From a candidate division WOR-3 bacterium (GTDB taxonomy: Bacteria > Hydrothermota > Hydrothermia > UBA1063 > CAJXJZ01), in contig JALVYB010000098.1 in the NCBI GenBank assembly GCA_027038175.1, positions 7,606-71,605 on the forward strand: a DNA stretch of 64,000 nt. Direction: 5' to 3'. Position numbers and translations under genes: made by a program. Under the pieces are notes generated by a model. It did no database searches, was not told where the DNA came from, and saw only the letters and a program-made list of their open reading frames with translations. Positions 1,082 through 7,241 of this stretch are shown piece by piece; position 1 is the stretch's first letter, and each line of letters opens with the position of its first letter.

Positions 1082-1333
1082 GTGGTTAAAATTAGATTGC
1101 AGCGAGTTGGAAAGAGAAATAGACCGCACTACAGATTGGTGGTAATTGATTCAAGAGAAGCAGTGGGCGGTAAAATTTTGGCTAATGTGGGTTCATATGA
1201 TCCATTGAAAGAGGTGATACAGATAAATATGCCAGAGGTAGAAAGATGGATATCTCTCGGAGCCCAGCTTACTCCGAGAGCCAAGGCACTCATAAAACTA
1301 TACACCAAATCCACTGAAGTGGTAAAATCCTAA
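1082..1333 (+). CDS. rpsP: 30S ribosomal protein S16
   Basis: 83 aa, [21 protein letters not shown]... matches canonical S16. GTG start with a strong SD. Confidence 0.9.
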
Positions 1334-1347
1334 AAGGAGGTAGTAAC

Positions 1348-1587
1348 ATGGGAGAGATTAAAGATCTCATAGAGTACATCGCAAAGGAACTCGTAGACCA
1401 TCCTGATCTTGTGTCTGTAAAGGAAATACCTGGCGAAAAGACAGTCATATATGAACTCAAGGTTGGTGAAGGTGACCTCGGAAAGGTAATCGGAAAAGAG
1501 GGAAGAACAGCAAAGGCCATCAGAGCCATCATTGCAGCCGCTGCAATGAAGAAAGGCAAGAGGGCCGTCCTGGAGATACTTGAATAG
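1348..1587 (+). CDS. KH-domain RNA-binding protein (UPF0109/YlqC-like)
   Basis: 79 aa with a [17 protein letters not shown] motif. Sits in the conserved position between rpsP and rimM. Confidence 0.8.
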
Positions 1588-2086
1588 TGAAGTATCTCTT
1601 GTTGCAGTCGCCAGAATAATAAAACCTTTTGGGCTGAGAGGTGAGGTTAAGCTTCACCTCTTAGCCGATTTAAATGACTTCCTGACTTATCCCGAATTTT
1701 TTATACGAGAGAAATTTTTCTACAAAAGGCTTGTCCTCGTTAACCTCCGTTCACGTGGCACGGTAGCACTTTTTGAAGGATATGCCTCAAGAGACGATGC
1801 AGAGTCTCTGAGGGGCAGAACTCTTTACGTGAAAGAGGAACACCTTGTTGAAAAAAACAGAGTGGATGAGTTCTACCCTTTTGAACTTGAGGGATTGGAG
1901 GTGGTTTTCAAAGAAAATATTCTGGGTATTGTGAGTAGAATGCTTGATTTTAATGGCAGATGGTACATAGAGGTTTCCGGGGAAAAGGATATACTTATAC
2001 CCTTTGTAAAACCTCTTGTAAACAGAGTTGACTGGGAAAACAAAAAAATATTTGTAGATTTACCAGAGGGCTATCTTGAATTATGA
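1580..2086 (+). CDS. rimM: 16S rRNA processing protein RimM
   Basis: 168 aa with an N-terminal [18 protein letters not shown] motif and a PRC barrel. The TTG start overlaps the stop of the KH gene. Matches the conserved rpsP-KH-rimM-trmD order. Confidence 0.85.
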
Positions 2087-2808
2087 AAATTACTGTTATC
2101 ACCCTGTTCCCGGAGATGTTTCGGGGCGTTTTTGAATTTGGGCCTGTAAAAATAGCGAGAGAGAAAGGGCTTGTTGATATAAATTTTTTAAATCTCAAGG
2201 ACTTTGCGGAAACTCCAAAGGACGTAGACGATTATCCCTATGGCGGTGGGGCAGGAATGGTTATTAAGCCAGAGCCTATAAAAAAATCTCTTGTGGCTGC
2301 CGGGGAGGGTGTTAGAGTACTTACAACTCCGAAAGGCCGGCCGTTTACTCAGGAGATAGCCAACACCTTATCTAAAGAAGATCATCTCATCATATTCTGT
2401 GGCAGGTATAAGGGTATTGACGAGAGAGTGAGAGATATGTTCGATTATGAGATTTCAATAGGCGATTATGTGCTATCTGGAGGGGAAATTCCAGCGATGG
2501 TTATTGTTGATTCTGTTGTAAGGCTCCTTCCCGGAGCGACTTCTGATGTAACCTCTGTGTTGACTGACTCTTATCAAAGCGGAATACTATCAGAACCTCA
2601 ATATACACGACCTCGTGTATTTGAGGGAAAAGAGGTTCCTGAGGTTTTATTATCCGGGAATCATAAGGCAATAGAGCGTTTTAGAAGAAAAGAGGCGCTT
2701 AGAACGACACTGTTAAAGCGACCGGACCTTTTGTTTAAAGTCAAACTTAGTAATGAAGATTTGCGTCTAATTGTTGAAATTTTGAAAGAGGGCGGTAAAG
2801 ATAGATAA
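2083..2808 (+). CDS. trmD: tRNA (guanine37-N1)-methyltransferase
   Basis: 241 aa. [13 protein letters not shown]..., a GGGAGMV motif and an SPOUT fold. 4-bp overlap with rimM. Confidence 0.9.
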   Translation: MKITVITLFPEMFRGVFEFGPVKIAREKGLVDINFLNLKDFAETPKDVDDYPYGGGAGMVIKPEPIKKSLVAAGEGVRVLTTPKGRPFTQEIANTLSKEDHLIIFCGRYKGIDERVRDMFDYEISIGDYVLSGGEIPAMVIVDSVVRLLPGATSDVTSVLTDSYQSGILSEPQYTRPRVFEGKEVPEVLLSGNHKAIERFRRKEALRTTLLKRPDLLFKVKLSNEDLRLIVEILKEGGKDR

Positions 2809-2841
2809 GAAGAATAGAAAAGTTACAATGGGGGATTTATA

Positions 2842-3581
2842 ATGATAGATTTGTTTTCAAGTGTTAATAATATGGTGGTAGTAGATAAAGAGAAAATTGA
2901 GAAATACGAAGTTAACGAAATTATAAACAAAGTGATTTTAGGCGATGCACTTCGAGTGCTAAAGAAGTTACCATCTAGTGTGGTAGATATGGTCTTTATG
3001 GTTCCACCCTATTTTCTACAACTTCCAAGTAAAAAACTGAGACGTTGGAAAGTCAAAACAGAAGTTGATGCCGTAAATGATGATTGGGATAAATTTGGTT
3101 CATTTGAAGAATATGACAATTTCATTAAAAATATCCTAACAGAGATTAAAAGAGTAATGAAACCCAATGCTACTATTTGGGTGATTGCGACATATCACAG
3201 TATTTTTAGGATTGGTAAAATTATGCAGGATTTAGGGTTTTGGATACTCAATGATGTTCATTGGGTAAAAACAAATCCAATGCTAAATTGGTTGGGAGTT
3301 AGATTTACAAATGCAACAGAGACTTTAATCTGGGCAGTAAAAGACAAAAAAGCGAAAAAATATACCTTCAATAAAGAATGGGCAAAGAAATTTGGTATAG
3401 GAAAAGTCGGAGCAAATTTTGGGTTCTGCCAATATGCAATGGTAAAGAGCGATTAAAAGATGAAAAAGGTAAAAAATTACACTCCACTCAGAAACCAATT
3501 GAGCTTTTGAAAAGAGTTATATTAACTTCTACAAAAGAGGAAGATGTTGTTTTGGATTTCGTAGCTGGCACTGGAGGTTAA
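2842..3581 (+). pseudogene. CcrM/HinfI-family beta-class N6-adenine DNA methyltransferase, disrupted by a frameshift and premature stop, with degenerate catalytic motifs
   Basis: Two overlapping ORFs (2842..3456 and 3378..3581) together align collinearly with CcrM-type MTases (DDWDKFGSFEEYDNF, KPNATIWVIATYHSIFRIG, DLGFWILNDVHWVKTNP, FTNATETLIWA, YTFN, then FWVLPICNGKERLKDEKGKKLHSTQKPIELL). A -1 shift maps to about 3414-3423 (AAATTTTGGG). Motif IV reads VPPY rather than DPPY. Motif I reads FVAGTGG rather than FxGSGTT, and TAA follows immediately, so motifs II and III are missing. Confidence 0.7.
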
Positions 3582-3584
3582 ACT

Positions 3585-4313
3585 ATGGTTACCAAGGTTG
3601 AAGCGATAAGAAAGGTGCTTGAAGAATTTGGTGGGAAGGCAACTTGGCAACAAATTTATGATAATATTGAGAAGTATTATCCTGCTGCTAAAGCAAGTAA
3701 AGCGTGGAAGGAGGGAATAAGAGGAGTATTATATAGAGAAATAAGAAAAGGAAAAAATTTTAAAAAAATTGGGATAGGAATTTTCGCATTAAAAGAATAC
3801 GAAGAAGAACCTATGCCTAAAAAAGAAGATAAGATTAGGATGCACCCATTTATGGAGGGTATTTGTATAGAATTAGGTAACCTGCACAATTTCTTAACAT
3901 ATACTCCTGATAAAACAAATATATTTAAAGAAGGAATACCACTAAATCAAATATCCACTCTAAATGAAATACCACCTTTCACATATCCTGAAATTATTAA
4001 AGATGTTAAAAGAATTGATGTTATTTGGTTTAACAAAGGAAAATTAATTTTTCCACAAAGAGTTTTTGAAGTTGTTCATAGTTTAAATACTTTGTCAGAG
4101 GCACTTAATAGGTGTTTGCAACTTCTTCCATTTAATGTAAAGTTTTATATAATAGCTCCAAAAGAATATTCAAAAAAGTATTATTCAAAAATAGAGAAAA
4201 AACCGTATGCAGAATTTAAAAATAGATTTTTCTTTATGGATTACGATAGGATAATTGCTTTTTATGAGTATGCGGTAAAGTATGATAAACTTAAAAGAGA
4301 GGTATTAGGATGA
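3585..4313 (+). CDS. hypothetical protein with HARE-HTH/Mrr_N-like winged-helix N-terminus; candidate restriction-endonuclease-like partner
   Basis: 242 aa. The N-terminal 70 aa (VEAIRKVLEEFGGKATWQQIYDNIEKYY...KKIGIGIFALKEY) resemble the wHTH domains found on restriction enzymes. The C-terminal region carries a possible degenerate nuclease core (RIDVIWF...FEVVHS). Start follows a GGAGG RBS. The 3' end overlaps the next ORF by ATGA. Confidence 0.4.
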   Translation: MVTKVEAIRKVLEEFGGKATWQQIYDNIEKYYPAAKASKAWKEGIRGVLYREIRKGKNFKKIGIGIFALKEYEEEPMPKKEDKIRMHPFMEGICIELGNLHNFLTYTPDKTNIFKEGIPLNQISTLNEIPPFTYPEIIKDVKRIDVIWFNKGKLIFPQRVFEVVHSLNTLSEALNRCLQLLPFNVKFYIIAPKEYSKKYYSKIEKKPYAEFKNRFFFMDYDRIIAFYEYAVKYDKLKREVLG

Positions 4314-5194
4314 TAGAATATAACAAAATTAAGGAAATTCTGAATAGGCATCATTGGAATATAAAATCTGATTTACTAAGAAAGATTTCAGAAATTGATT
4401 TCAAAGTTCCATATCGCTTTAGCACCCTATCTCAAAAAGAGGTCAAGTTATATAATAAAAATCAAATCCTCCAACATCTATTACAATCTCACGAGATAAG
4501 GTTTGGAGATGCAATGGAAGAACTAATCACAGAAATTATTGAAGATTTAGGATATAGGAATCTTCCTAAAAATATCAGAAATAGTGAGGGAGAAACACTT
4601 TCTATTGACCAGTATTTTACTAATGAAAACACATATTATTTCATTGAGCAAAAAGTAAGGGATGATCATGACTCTACAAAGAAAAGAGGTCAAATAAACA
4701 ATTTTGAGAAAAAATTAGAAGTCTTAAATAACTCCCATGGCGGGAATTTGATTGGTATTATGTATTTTATAGACCCAGATTTAAGGAAGAATCAGAATTT
4801 CTATGTTGAGAAACTTAGAGAATTTTCTGATTTTTATGGTGTGGAACTTCATCTATTTTATGGTCGTGAGTTGTTTGAGTATTTCGATAGCCCTCAAGTA
4901 TGGGACGATTTAATACAGTGGCTCAAAAGATGGAAAGATGAACTGCCGGAATTACCAGAAATAAATTTTGACGAAAATCCAGAAGAAAGCTTTGAAGAAA
5001 TTAAAGAATTAGAAATCAGATACTGGAGGAAAATCCTGCAAAACGAGAAGTTATGGGACGGAAATATAATGGAAATCTTGTTTAAAGAAGGTACTACTCT
5101 AACTTTAATGTTAGACTATTTCAGACAAAAAGAAGATAAACCACATGTTAATTTAGCAAGACTACTTGAGGATAAATTGAAGGAGTATTATTAG
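4310..5194 (+). CDS. PD-(D/E)xK nuclease, type II restriction-endonuclease-like
   Basis: 294 aa with a clear E...D-x13-E-Q-K arrangement (MEELITE ... SIDQYFTNENTYYFIEQK). Translationally coupled to the upstream ORF and adjacent to the dead MTase. Confidence 0.5.
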   Translation: MIEYNKIKEILNRHHWNIKSDLLRKISEIDFKVPYRFSTLSQKEVKLYNKNQILQHLLQSHEIRFGDAMEELITEIIEDLGYRNLPKNIRNSEGETLSIDQYFTNENTYYFIEQKVRDDHDSTKKRGQINNFEKKLEVLNNSHGGNLIGIMYFIDPDLRKNQNFYVEKLREFSDFYGVELHLFYGRELFEYFDSPQVWDDLIQWLKRWKDELPELPEINFDENPEESFEEIKELEIRYWRKILQNEKLWDGNIMEILFKEGTTLTLMLDYFRQKEDKPHVNLARLLEDKLKEYY

Positions 5195-5258
5195 TCTGGT
5201 GTGTAACTTTGCAGTACATCTATGATGGTATAAAATTTAAAACTAAAGGAGGCACAAA

Positions 5259-5633
5259 ATGAGCAACGTAATGAAGGAGATTGAAAAACAGTTTATGAGG
5301 GATGATATTCCGGATTTCGGGCCTGGTGATACCATAAAGGTGTGGCTCAGAATAAAGGAGCTGAAAGAAGATCCGAAAACGAGAAAAATAGTTGAGAAGG
5401 TGAGATTGCAGCCCTTCGAGGGTGTTGTCATAAGACGCAGGGGTGGAGGTTTAAACGAAACGTTTACGGTGAGAAAGGTGACACAGGGAATAGGTATTGA
5501 GAAGATTATCCCTATACATTCACAGGTTTATGAGAAGATTGACGTAATAAGAAGAGGTAAAGTCAGAAGAGCAAGGATATACTACCTCAGAGAGAGAAGG
5601 GGTAAGGCTGCAAGGATTAAAGAAAAAAGGTAA
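5259..5633 (+). CDS. rplS: 50S ribosomal protein L19
   Basis: 124 aa. The GDTIKVWLRIKE...RLQPFEGVVI...RKVTQGIGIEKIIPIHS sequence is canonical L19. An AAAGGAGG RBS precedes the start. Confidence 0.9.
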   Translation: MSNVMKEIEKQFMRDDIPDFGPGDTIKVWLRIKELKEDPKTRKIVEKVRLQPFEGVVIRRRGGGLNETFTVRKVTQGIGIEKIIPIHSQVYEKIDVIRRGKVRRARIYYLRERRGKAARIKEKR

Positions 5634-5658
5634 GCATATTCAGAAAAGATTTTTAAAA

Positions 5659-5686
5659 AAGCCCTGCATTTGCAGGGCTTTTTTAG
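5659..5686. terminator. bidirectional rho-independent terminator
   Basis: Stem GCCCTGC / GCAGGGC (5661-5678) with an ATTT loop, flanked by an A-run and a T6 run. Sits between convergent rplS (+) and the 5718..7241 (-) gene. Confidence 0.7.
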
Positions 5687-5717
5687 TTTTATAAGACCCC
5701 ACTTAGGGGCCTTGATT

Positions 5718-7241
5718 TTATCTTAGTTTTAAAAACTTACCCTTTAATGTTCCTTTTGCAGTATGTACCAGGGCAAAATAGAGTCCATTCTTTAAACCAT
5801 GTAGTTCTGTTCTCGCTTCCCCATTGTTAAATCTAACGACTTTGTGCATGATTTTTCTGCCGGATATATCCATAATATCAAGGTTGGCATATCCATTAAT
5901 AGTGCTGGAGACCATTCTCAAGATACCATGGTTCAAAGATAATGAAAGCGATGGTGTTATTTCTTCTGCTTTTTTGTTTTCTTTAACCTGTGTGTTGTAC
6001 ATATGATCTATGAAGAATTGAGTACTGTCATATATAAAGTATATGGTGACAAGATGGCTGAAATCGTTGTGCCACAGAACATATGGAATGGCATAGTCCT
6101 GCCAGTTTCTTATTTTGGGGTGGTAATAAGGGGACGTATTGAAAATGTATGTATAGGCACCGGAGTCAGAGACCTGGACAGGTGTGTTGTTACAGTAAAT
6201 ACTGTCTCCATCCGCAATCATCTCCTGATAGTATACGTTAACATATCCACCAACACTGGCTGTATATGCAATATTAAGTCCACCGTTTGAAATATAAGTA
6301 AACCATGGAACCATATCAACGTCGTAGATACCGTCGTAATCACCGTTATATGGGTAGTCTATGTGCTTTATTGTAACCCAGTTGTCTGAAGAATAATCAA
6401 TATACAGTCTGCCGCTGTCTATATATGCAATTGCCTCAAGGCCGTACAAACTGGCCGTCCTTACCTGTGCTTTCATACTTGTATTAATTGCCTGCAGTGA
6501 TACTGTCTCCACCAGGGTATCTCCCATTGTGTCTGTGAGAACGTTATAGTAGATTTTATTAACACCTGTAGATGTATCCTGATAGGTATATGCAAAGAGG
6601 AGTCTTACAGAATCTCCATAGTCATAGGAAGAGAGACTTTGAAGTTCCCTTATTTTAGGAGAGTTTGGTGAAAGAAGCCTTGAGTAGACTATTTTCCACG
6701 TGGAGCCAAAATCTGTAGAACGCAATACACTGTATCTCGCATCAGCACCATTTTTCCATCCAAGAGCAACCAGATAAAAATACGGTACATGGTTCCCATC
6801 TTTAGCAACTGTCATATAAGCGCATTGGACTGAATCAAGGTCATTAAAGGCATCTCCTCTATCTCCAACGCTATTAAATGGGTCATTAAGTGGTTTAACA
6901 ACGAATGAAAAATAATGACTACTTGTCCCAAGAGGGGTAAAGTAGTAGAGAGTATCAGCATAGTAAATGATGTTGATTGGTTGTGGATGGGAATTAAGAT
7001 TTGTGTCAAAAGTATTATCCAGATAATTCCAGGTTGTGCCATAGTCATTGGTATAAACCACACTTTTGTAGGCTACGTTATTATCATCGTAGTATTGCAT
7101 GACAACGTACATTTCTGAGTCGGATGGTACCACGAAGTCGTATGCTATTGGCAGTGAGTCGGGTCTGGTTATTACGTGTATGTCCCTGTTCCATGCCCAC
7201 AGCATCATGGGCAGGAGTACTCCCACGATCAGCCTCTTCAT
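5718..7241 (-). CDS. secreted protein with T9SS-type C-terminal sorting domain
   Basis: 507 aa with an N-terminal signal-like hydrophobic segment. The C-terminal ~75 aa (LDIMDISGRKI...LKNGLYFALVHTAKG...KFLKLR) match the Por-secretion-tail pattern shared with two other proteins in the window. Confidence 0.55.
   Translation of the reverse strand: MKRLIVGVLLPMMLWAWNRDIHVITRPDSLPIAYDFVVPSDSEMYVVMQYYDDNNVAYKSVVYTNDYGTTWNYLDNTFDTNLNSHPQPINIIYYADTLYYFTPLGTSSHYFSFVVKPLNDPFNSVGDRGDAFNDLDSVQCAYMTVAKDGNHVPYFYLVALGWKNGADARYSVLRSTDFGSTWKIVYSRLLSPNSPKIRELQSLSSYDYGDSVRLLFAYTYQDTSTGVNKIYYNVLTDTMGDTLVETVSLQAINTSMKAQVRTASLYGLEAIAYIDSGRLYIDYSSDNWVTIKHIDYPYNGDYDGIYDVDMVPWFTYISNGGLNIAYTASVGGYVNVYYQEMIADGDSIYCNNTPVQVSDSGAYTYIFNTSPYYHPKIRNWQDYAIPYVLWHNDFSHLVTIYFIYDSTQFFIDHMYNTQVKENKKAEEITPSLSLSLNHGILRMVSSTINGYANLDIMDISGRKIMHKVVRFNNGEARTELHGLKNGLYFALVHTAKGTLKGKFLKLR

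Follow-up and report, generated by a model that had tools for sequence, protein, structure and literature searches.

A restriction endonuclease that lacks its methyltransferase is generally regarded as lethal, and intact orphan endonucleases are expected to be rare. Among the closest described relatives of the locus studied here are the HpyAIV/HinfI type II restriction-modification (RM) systems, of which HpyAIV of Helicobacter pylori (HP1351/HP1352) includes an active GANTC endonuclease, HP1351 (PMC4917963). The locus lies in a 64-kb stretch of contig JALVYB010000098.1 from a candidate division WOR-3 bacterium (64,000 nucleotides (nt), hereafter the window), where two intact open reading frames (ORFs), ORF1 (called X) and ORF2 (the endonuclease gene, R), follow the remnants of a methyltransferase gene (M). 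Like the HpyAIV/HinfI systems, it has an ORF2 that belongs to the HpyAIV equivalog family with an E...D-x12-EQK core, its M remnant is CcrM/HinfI-like, and the loci L092 and L095 show the canonical M-R arrangement. Unlike them, it has a dead M, a third gene between M and R, and a non-canonical N-terminus (55 residues) in ORF2. Its features fit a non-classical module better than a restriction system in decay, and we consider it a real possibility, though short of an even chance, that X and R form a methyltransferase-independent module in which R is no longer an autonomous GANTC cutter.

The closest described analogue of X is H. pylori hrgA. HrgA combines an RNA polymerase delta-subunit-like (HARE) winged helix with a PD-(D/E)XK domain, and hrgA replaces hpyIIIR at the HpyIII (GATC) locus, beside an often inactive M.HpyIII; its exchange by homologous recombination has been shown, and it has no known function (PMC3045609). 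The HrgA/DUF511 family (PF04373) shares with X its architecture and its residence in an N6-methyladenine (m6A) RM locus, and X likewise occurs in H. pylori, in the HpyAIV locus. However, HrgA is ~315 amino acids (aa) long, whereas X has ~242 aa, and HrgA replaces R, whereas X sits between M and R. In addition, X differs in carrying an NmeDI_C-type domain and in its occurrence in Bacteria and Archaea and in at least four RM architectures. No match of ORF1 to PF04373 was found at E<=1, the resemblance being one of architecture and locus behaviour only. X-type genes can be seen as a variant of the hrgA-like genes that reside in RM loci, and they offer a plausible, testable path to a more novel finding.

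Other described systems share parts of this organization. R.NmeDI, a 351-aa enzyme with the recognition site RCCGGY, cuts on both sides of its site at a distance (PMC2095814). It has the same C-terminal NmeDI_C domain as X, and the PADLOC REase_II profile that matches X has 351 positions, the length of R.NmeDI; nevertheless, its N-terminal domain is different, and it pairs with its own cognate M.NmeDI. Winged-helix nuclease fusions (DpnI, HhiV4I, FcyTI, and others) are m6A-dependent type IV enzymes (PMC11037411). X resembles them in joining a winged helix to a nuclease-like domain, in being often stand-alone and cellular, and in the fold match of its winged helix to that of DpnI, but domain order and nuclease family differ from those of the characterised enzymes. 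Moreover, a dependence of X on its neighbour's methylation was considered and rejected, since it conflicts with ~9 loci in which an intact adenine methyltransferase gene lies directly beside an intact X, typically with a 4-nt overlap. Like C proteins and two-subunit enzymes such as BspD6I, X is encoded directly upstream of R and translationally coupled to it; Nt.BspD6I is also among the weak fold matches of X, and AlwI-family enzymes are frequent partners of X. In contrast to C proteins, X is three times larger and carries a nuclease-like domain. Since X persists where R is gone or only a fragment, its role as a dedicated C-protein-like controller or as an obligate R subunit was rejected. Mrr combines an Mrr_N winged helix with a PD-(D/E)xK domain, with the same domain order and overall logic as X; the Mrr family models of Pfam and NCBIfam do not match the sequence of ORF1. 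A full-text search of the literature found neither the X family nor the placement of such genes between M and R described, which is not proof of novelty.

An intact HpyAIV-family endonuclease gene beside a dead methyltransferase gene

The assignment of ORF2 to the HpyAIV equivalog (NCBIfam NF045832) is well above the cut-off (205.8 bits versus 160, E=8e-61, profile positions 1-266 of 269). Its catalytic residues, E70/E71 (4517-4522), D100 (4607-4609) and E113-Q-K115 (4646-4654), all fall within invariant columns of the family and form a PD-(D/E)xK core. A first-pass annotation, made from the letters of the window alone, had recognized this core with a D-x13-EQK spacing; the E, D and EQK elements hold, and the spacing has to be corrected to D100-x12-E113-Q-K115. 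On the basis of family membership, ORF2 is predicted to be a GANTC-type restriction endonuclease. Losses at conserved positions are concentrated at one end of the protein. The 7 invariant columns lost (out of 89) lie all within aa 2-52 and none in aa 53-250, and 17 of the 21 lost family columns with conservation of at least 90% are found in the same segment. Here, the canonical N-terminal motif P-E-R-F-[IT]-G-L-F-R-P-T-K-P is missing and VPYRFSTLSQKEVKLYNKNQ is present instead, and the score of ORF2 is ~60 bits lower than that of the canonical L092 enzyme (206 versus 267 bits). Sequence searches of the PDB with ORF1, ORF2 and both family profiles gave no meaningful match, and no significant match was found in PHROGs. 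The local Pfam model PF09520.16 'RE_TdeIII' did not match ORF2 at E<=1, whereas the precomputed PF09520.17 'HinfI' does; the PF09520 model was evidently rebuilt and renamed between Pfam releases.

The methyltransferase gene upstream of X is CcrM/HinfI-like and, judged from its sequence, it is dead by three lesions rather than by mere fragmentation. Relative to the intact genes of L009 and L092, the first lesion converts the DPPY motif into VPPY (GAT to GTT, D54V, 3001-3003), the second is a 1-nt deletion after position 3417, and the third is an internal deletion of ~165 nt with a TGGA microhomology at its junction, by which motif I is fused to the last three codons. The latter removes ~56 C-terminal residues after motif I, and keeps the last codons and the GGAGG sequence. 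Four of the 85 invariant columns are substituted (D54V, P148L, P238F, and T244G). Canonical M proteins end in ...YMKLEVD(N)*, the corresponding codons carrying the ribosome-binding site (RBS) for the next gene, and this same terminus precedes R in the operons without X and precedes X in L009. Because the last M codons and the RBS are retained, the truncation is explained as an internal deletion at the TGGA microhomology, and its interpretation as the scar of an illegitimate insertion of X was rejected. An assembly error was likewise rejected as the origin of the frameshift, since an independent Logan assembly from another run (L089) is 100% identical over 6716 nt, frameshift included, and two further lesions are present. 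The first-pass description of two intact ORFs with an ATGA overlap, a GGAGG RBS and a dead methyltransferase beside them is borne out by both the sequence and the independent assembly.

The window locus does not have the functional linked cognate methyltransferase of a classical type II RM system. GANTC sites are not depleted in the 64 kb (180 sites, observed/expected 0.93), no other beta-class methyltransferase gene was found in the window, and no convincing amino-methyltransferase motif was found elsewhere in it. The large number of sites, together with the lack of a second beta-class methyltransferase in this stretch, makes real the paradox already pointed out from the sequence, namely nuclease genes kept without a functional cognate methyltransferase.

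X-R pairs without methyltransferase recur in distant genomes

The genomic context of X was compared in 80 genome loci (L009-L088), in which genes on the same strand and within two genes of X were counted as neighbours. X adjoins an intact R in 22 loci, and an intact M within two genes was found in only two of them (L009 and L045), being absent from the other 20. These 20 loci include L023, from an ANME-1 archaeon, and ten pairs of X with an AlwI-like gene; L096 is a further X-R locus without M, outside the 80-locus set. A motif scan of the fetched flanks revealed no candidate methyltransferase ORF in 15 of the 20 loci, and a possible one at a distance of 2-4 kb in three. The ten AlwI-type loci (L020, L021, L024, L025, L027, L029, L030, L033, L041, and L050) share a compact organization, with a gap of -17 to +4 nt between X and an intact AlwI-family gene (521-534 aa). 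In seven of them the Dam-family methyltransferase gene upstream is present as a fragment only. Flanking genes were scanned in eight of the ten loci, and the annotated ones are all of housekeeping type, with no methyltransferase gene among them. In L021, L024, L025, and L036, an N-terminal M fragment of ~100-125 aa overlaps the start of X by 4 nt, as would be expected of an intact gene; L036 has no AlwI gene.

In ordinary RM decay, orphan methyltransferases are common and orphan endonucleases are rare. Around X, an intact M without an intact R was found in ~7 loci, fewer than the 20 with an intact R and no M, a pattern opposite to the prediction of ordinary decay. Of the three explanations left open by the first-pass annotation (nucleases dead or re-purposed, protection by another methyltransferase, or a non-canonical defence or toxin module), the last has gained the strongest support, since in 20 out of 22 loci an intact R is again found beside X without M.

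X and the 5' end of R have an origin different from the rest of the operon

The closest relatives of R, P0123 (74% identical) and P0126 (70%), are encoded in overlapping M-R operons without X. L092 is one of these X-less operons, and nucleotide identity between it and the window amounts to 89.5% in M and to 88.2% in the core of R. However, no counterpart of X or of R codons 1 to ~52 was detected in L092 by blastn, similarity beginning again at position 4464. X occupies precisely the junction of the M stop with the R start, and the mosaic breakpoint coincides with a conserved LQHLLQSHEIR block in R. Synonymous divergence (dS) between the window and L092 is 2.4 in ORF2 aa 1-58, versus 0.39 in the core. 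Furthermore, the N-terminal segment of ORF2 groups the window with L009, and L023 with L096, following the tree of X and not that of the R core. The high dS and the grouping with the X tree show that X and the R 5' end came in together by recombination. The comparison of the window with L092 shows the presence/absence polymorphism with co-converted flanks that is expected of homing genes.

In canonical R proteins, no other part is as conserved as the replaced segment (96% identity between L092 and L095, compared with 82% in the core). Its identity drops to 29-57% between X-linked R genes; compared with every other R, the segment of the window reaches 33-48%. The canonical motif RF[IT]GLFRPTKP is missing in 9 of the best 120 R homologues, which display two alternative types of N-terminus, and the genes with an alternative N-terminus are linked to X in all cases of known context. 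Two simpler origins of this segment were rejected: a compensated frameshift, since the other frames do not encode the canonical motif, and drift in situ, since dS is ~6 times that of the core and the type is common to other loci. X is therefore an inserted third gene, absent from the closest M-R relatives, and does not represent the second endonuclease of a classical restriction system.

Selection acting on M, X and R

Ratios of nonsynonymous to synonymous substitution rates (dN/dS) were calculated for the window versus L092, using L092 versus L095 as control. In the M core, dN/dS was 0.095 as compared to 0.016 in the control, with ~21 nonsynonymous changes versus ~4 expected. In the R core, the ratio was similar to that of the control (0.101 versus 0.092), as was the number of nonsynonymous changes (17 versus ~16 expected), and values between X and its relatives ranged from 0.08 to 0.15. 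The small counts make this contrast supportive rather than conclusive; as such, it points to an M gene that has been evolving without constraint for some time, and to constraint on X and on the R core. The option of catalytically dead nucleases is disfavoured by these tests.

X combines a winged helix with a nuclease-like domain

The AlphaFold2 (AF2) model of full-length X has a predicted local distance difference test (pLDDT) score of 91. Its N-terminus is composed of three helices and a beta wing, the winged-helix fold, and Foldseek matched it to histone H1, FoxP3 (forkhead) and the winged-helix domain of DpnI with probabilities of 0.8-0.99. The X profile aligns with the forkhead recognition helix, this helix lying around W41-G44-I-R46-G-V-L-Y-R-E. 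An N-terminus of the HARE-HTH or Mrr_N kind had been proposed for ORF1. Its winged-helix character is upheld by the AF2 model, Foldseek, the forkhead profile and the names of homologues, some of which carry PF05066 or the name 'HTH HARE-type'. The more precise label is not, since the Pfam HARE-HTH model PF05066 stays below threshold on ORF1 (19.9 bits versus a gathering cut-off of 25.9, E=1e-3) and, as stated above, Mrr models do not match. The winged helix of X is presumably a DNA reader.

ORF1 matched no curated family in the libraries searched locally. The C-terminal domain of a protein identical to ORF1 is assigned to Pfam PF27126 NmeDI_C (precomputed, E<=1e-5), and aa 138-228 of ORF1 match weakly positions 235-325 of the 351 of the PADLOC REase_II profile (E=1.6e-4). 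The early view that both ORFs are of nuclease type is in agreement with these assignments and with the HpyAIV family membership of ORF2. The model of this domain has a pLDDT of 93, and its best fold matches in the PDB, all of them weak, are to the PD-(D/E)xK nucleases BsaWI, Mus81, Can2, and Nt.BspD6I. Residues H87, E96, K142, D145, E162, D/H165, T169, R176, and Q179 are near-invariant across the 80 loci. The X family displays E96, D145 and E162-V-[VI]-D/H165 in place of the canonical D ... (D/E)-x-K signature, and a variant active site is possible.

The EVVH sequence of ORF1 had been taken as a possible sign of a dead nuclease. The family motif at this place is E-V-[VI]-D in 74 of 79 sequences, and the window has H165. 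The same histidine is found in L009, where the methyltransferase is intact, and independently in L013 and L040, and ORF1 deviates from none of the 40 invariant columns of the family. The idea that H165 marks a dead ORF1 was therefore rejected.

The C-terminal domain of X is also found at the end of proteins of ~300-420 aa with unrelated N-termini and an NmeDI-like architecture (P0300-P0424), and X-type winged helices are found with other C-terminal domains. Since each half occurs with other partners, both can be regarded as shuffled modules.

X defines a widespread family of cellular genes, many of them nested in RM operons

A word-indexed search retrieved 396 X homologues, and an exhaustive search (E<=0.001) extended the family to ~640 clusters at 50% identity. 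Homologues are 45-84% identical, are distributed in many bacterial and archaeal phyla, and are all named 'hypothetical'. RM-family genes lie beside X in 57 of the 80 loci, the usual place of X being wedged, with translational coupling, between the M and R genes of adenine-methylating operons. At least four architectures were found: M(beta)-X-R(HpyAIV), R(PF09520, TdeIII/HinfI-like)-X-M(Dam family), M(Dam family, fragment)-X-R(AlwI-like), and R(PF09520)-X-M(beta). The partner methyltransferases are adenine-specific in all cases.

X itself is intact in nearly all loci examined, and many of these loci hold only M remnants. Erosion of its neighbours is strongly polar, with 50 cases on the side facing X versus 1 on the opposite side. 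Thus, 29 upstream neighbours have lost their 3' part and one its 5' part, and 21 downstream neighbours have lost their 5' part and none the 3' part. The bias among upstream neighbours fits the need to keep a promoter and an RBS for X. There are few loci in which X is broken, such as L056 (5956-6717), where a stop splits it into 54 and 199 aa and the upstream methyltransferase is intact.

In the H. pylori HpyAIV locus, an intact X stands in place of the 3' half of M.HpyAIV and of the 5' half of R.HpyAIV, leaving a CcrM/HinfI-type N-terminal fragment on the M side and an HpyAIV-family C-terminal fragment on the R side. This organization, exemplified by strain HUP-B14 (L082, 5376-7190) and also found in L081, L085, L086, and L088, suggests that the HpyAIV system was replaced by an allele with X, in a way comparable to hrgA at HpyIII. 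The H. pylori X adjoins a gene for a C-terminal processing protease and belongs to a 293-member cluster in which all proteins are annotated as 'hypothetical protein'.

X was not found in 50,697 phage records and 2.9 million viral contigs, and the plasmid search gave a single match with 22% identity. X is thus a cellular gene, and it is self-sufficient in that it stays intact where both M and R are fragments. It can be described as a conserved and mobile accessory gene for a nuclease-like protein, from a family that has not been studied before. In several loci X adjoins a gene for a Fic-family adenylyltransferase, and in five others a gene for a Schlafen/AlbA_2 protein with HATPase_c_4 lies nearby (such neighbours were recorded at L056 7575-, L066, L057 7324-8193, and L072), which suggests defence-island surroundings. 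In an archaeal contig (L004, 5821-5997), a short ORF of 58 aa, zinc-ribbon-like with its two CxxC pairs, stops 3 nt upstream of X; in the window, the M remnant and ORF1 are separated by the same distance.

A proposed methyltransferase-independent X-R module and its alternatives

The reading that we favour would start from a canonical two-gene M-R operon, ~89% identical to L092, that acquired X by recombination. X would have arrived together with new first ~55 codons of the endonuclease gene, replacing its most conserved segment. The resulting endonuclease would then no longer be an autonomous GANTC cutter, and would act only together with X or under its control, X being a winged-helix-guided nuclease that may supply this control or the discrimination of targets. 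Self-protection by methylation could have become dispensable in this way, allowing the methyltransferase to decay, and the X-R pair would persist under selection independently of methyltransferase, most likely in defence against foreign, possibly modified, DNA. The joint action of X and R, the taming of R by its altered N-terminus, and the nature of the DNA attacked are what we infer here. In a broader and more tentative version, X would be a portable accessory nuclease whose arrival between M and R, in the HpyAIV type together with a new N-terminus for R, frees type II restriction genes from the need for a methyltransferase, X-R representing a new two-component restriction or abortive-infection system. 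Such a role would explain why orphan endonucleases are commoner than orphan methyltransferases beside X.

The pairing of X with R recurs in ~20 distant genomes and with three endonuclease groups. If X makes the methyltransferase dispensable, the pair would embody a new form of self/non-self discrimination or of control of a toxic nuclease. The present findings also offer a testable approach to the 'endonuclease-replacing' genes of the H. pylori hrgA type, whose function has been unknown for two decades, and they define a family of ~640 clusters annotated only as 'hypothetical protein'.

Several observations speak against a methyltransferase-independent X-R module. The dN/dS contrasts rest on small counts, the fold matches of the nuclease domain of X are weak (best E=0.018), and the canonical (D/E)xK lysine is absent in X, K142 being the nearest invariant basic residue. 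R genes of three groups are found as partners of X, HpyAIV-like, TdeIII/HinfI-like and AlwI-like, the last unrelated to the others, and a single specific mechanism of protein-protein contact is less likely for this reason. X has no RM-family neighbour in 23 of the 80 loci, it lies beside an intact M without an intact R in the ~7 loci mentioned above, and it has both genes intact beside it in L009 and L045; the function of X cannot, therefore, depend on R. A GANTC-specific methyltransferase encoded outside the inspected 64 kb would also explain an intact R in a conventional way.

This last point leads to the strongest competing explanation, which we consider unlikely though worth serious attention, and the core of which had already been raised in the first reading of the sequence: classical restriction, in which ORF2, and perhaps also ORF1, is an ordinary endonuclease sensitive to methylation, a methyltransferase of the same specificity encoded elsewhere protects the genome, the linked M became redundant and decayed, and X is an unrelated neighbour. 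Solitary GANTC (CcrM-type) and GATC (Dam) methyltransferases are common, and GATC methylation blocks AlwI and could also cover the AlwI-type loci. Purifying selection on an R core with intact catalytic residues, a genome stretch with 180 GANTC sites and no sign of avoidance, which must be protected if R is active, and the ready account of M decay by redundancy are all in line with protection in trans. Nevertheless, the search for a second methyltransferase proposed at that stage, as run within the 64-kb window, found none of the beta class, and protection in trans would have to hold in ~20 diverse genomes in which X stands beside an intact R without M in cis. It also leaves unexplained why loss of M is tied to the presence of X, the X-less relatives L092-L095 having kept M, and why the N-terminus of R was replaced.

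A second alternative, which we regard as improbable, is that X is a selfish, homing-type free-standing endonuclease gene for which RM operons are an eroding landing pad. The divergent R 5' end would then be a co-converted, cleavage-resistant target, and X would spread via recombination between M and R flanks. Much of the mosaic pattern agrees with this proposal, including the presence/absence of X in operons otherwise ~89% identical, the breakpoint at the LQHLLQSHEIR block with an adjacent R segment that follows the phylogeny of X, and the precise insertion between the M stop and the R start. The presence of X in at least four RM architectures, its survival beyond the erosion of its hosts, and the experimental hrgA/hpyIIIR recombinational exchange in H. 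pylori (PMC3045609) point in the same direction, and on this reading no nuclease gene specialised for nesting within RM operons would have been described before X. However, X is strongly conserved (dN/dS ~0.1, all 40 invariant columns retained), also in loci where it is fixed and solitary and decay would be expected, the R core is still constrained, no candidate target site was found, and the searches described above did not find X in phages and gave only the one distant match in plasmids.

Finally, decay of the whole island, with ORF1 and ORF2 inactive or unexpressed and open by chance, is very improbable, since the three lesions of M, the 17 near-invariant N-terminal positions lost in ORF2 and the replacement of the usual D165 by histidine in ORF1 are outweighed by relaxation that is seen in M and not in the R core or X, by the lack of invariant-residue losses in X and in R aa 53-250, by the presence of H165 beside an intact M and its independent origin elsewhere, by an N-terminus that differs as an imported module (dS 2.4 versus 0.39) of a type common to other loci, and by the recurrence of the same configuration in distant taxa.

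Organization and surroundings of the island

The features of the locus are collected in Table 1. The RM-derived island (2809-5258) separates trmD from rplS and shares their strand; it is placed within the conserved rpsP-KH-rimM-trmD-rplS ribosomal operon (context 1082-5686) and lies inside the rpsP-rimM-trmD-rplS transcription unit. No terminator-like site was found from trmD to rplS before the hairpin at 5653-5686, so that the island genes are probably transcribed, and transcription of rplS must either run through the island or begin at a weak promoter-like site (5208-5236). The M remnant ends with TAA at 3579-3581, followed by a 3-nt spacer and the start of ORF1, which lies 8 nt from GGAGG.

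Table 1. Coordinates of the features in and around the X-R locus (positions in the window)
Feature	Position	Strand	Basis and remarks
trmD, upstream host gene	2083..2808	+	ORF list; Pfam tRNA_m1G_MT on identical contig
Methyltransferase fragment A, N-terminal part, CcrM/HinfI-like beta-class m6A methyltransferase	2842..3456	+	Pfam PF01555 positions 1-119, E=1.3e-25; NCBIfam CcrM-type
Methyltransferase fragment B, different frame, ends at motif I (FVAGTGG*)	3378..3581	+	PF01555 positions 138-193
GGAGG RBS of ORF1	3572..3576	+	From last codons (LEV) of the methyltransferase gene
ORF1 (X), intact, 242 aa	3585..4313	+	ORF list and sequence
X N-terminal winged helix, aa 1-80, forkhead/HARE-like	3585..3824	+	AF2, Foldseek, profile
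X C-terminal NmeDI_C-type nuclease-like domain, aa 80-242	3822..4313	+	Pfam PF27126; PADLOC REase_II
X codon E96	3870-3872	+	
X codon D145	4017-4019	+	
X codon E162	4068-4070	+	
X codon D/H165	4077-4079	+	
ATGA junction, ORF1 stop TGA 4311-4313 / ORF2 ATG 4310-4312	4310..4313	+	Translational coupling; same in L009
ORF2 (R), intact, 294 aa	4310..5194	+	ORF list and sequence
ORF2 alternative N-terminal module 'type A', aa 1-58, origin different from the rest, inherited with X	4310..4483	+	
ORF2 catalytic core and C-terminal part, HpyAIV-family type II endonuclease	4484..5194	+	NCBIfam NF045832; PADLOC REase_II E=4e-69
rplS (5259-5633) and first terminator-like hairpin past the island (5653-5686)	5259..5686	+	

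No convincing flanking repeats of the island were found. An 8-bp perfect inverted repeat, AAGTTACA (2820-2827) and TGTAACTT (5202-5209), brackets the island, with one copy just past the trmD stop and the other just past the ORF2 stop; it is part of a 20-nt pair with 75% complementarity and may be due to chance. In Rfam, all matches in 2500-5800 were sub-threshold and fell on the rplS terminator hairpin. Downstream, the neighbours in the window look bacterial, with a Por_Secre_tail protein encoded at 5718-7241. The closest X (80% aa identity) is that of L009, on contig DRIF01000087.1 of a metagenome-assembled genome labelled as a Thermoplasmatales archaeon, and this archaeal label, in contrast with the bacterial appearance of the window, reflects either a cross-domain transfer of the cassette or a binning error.

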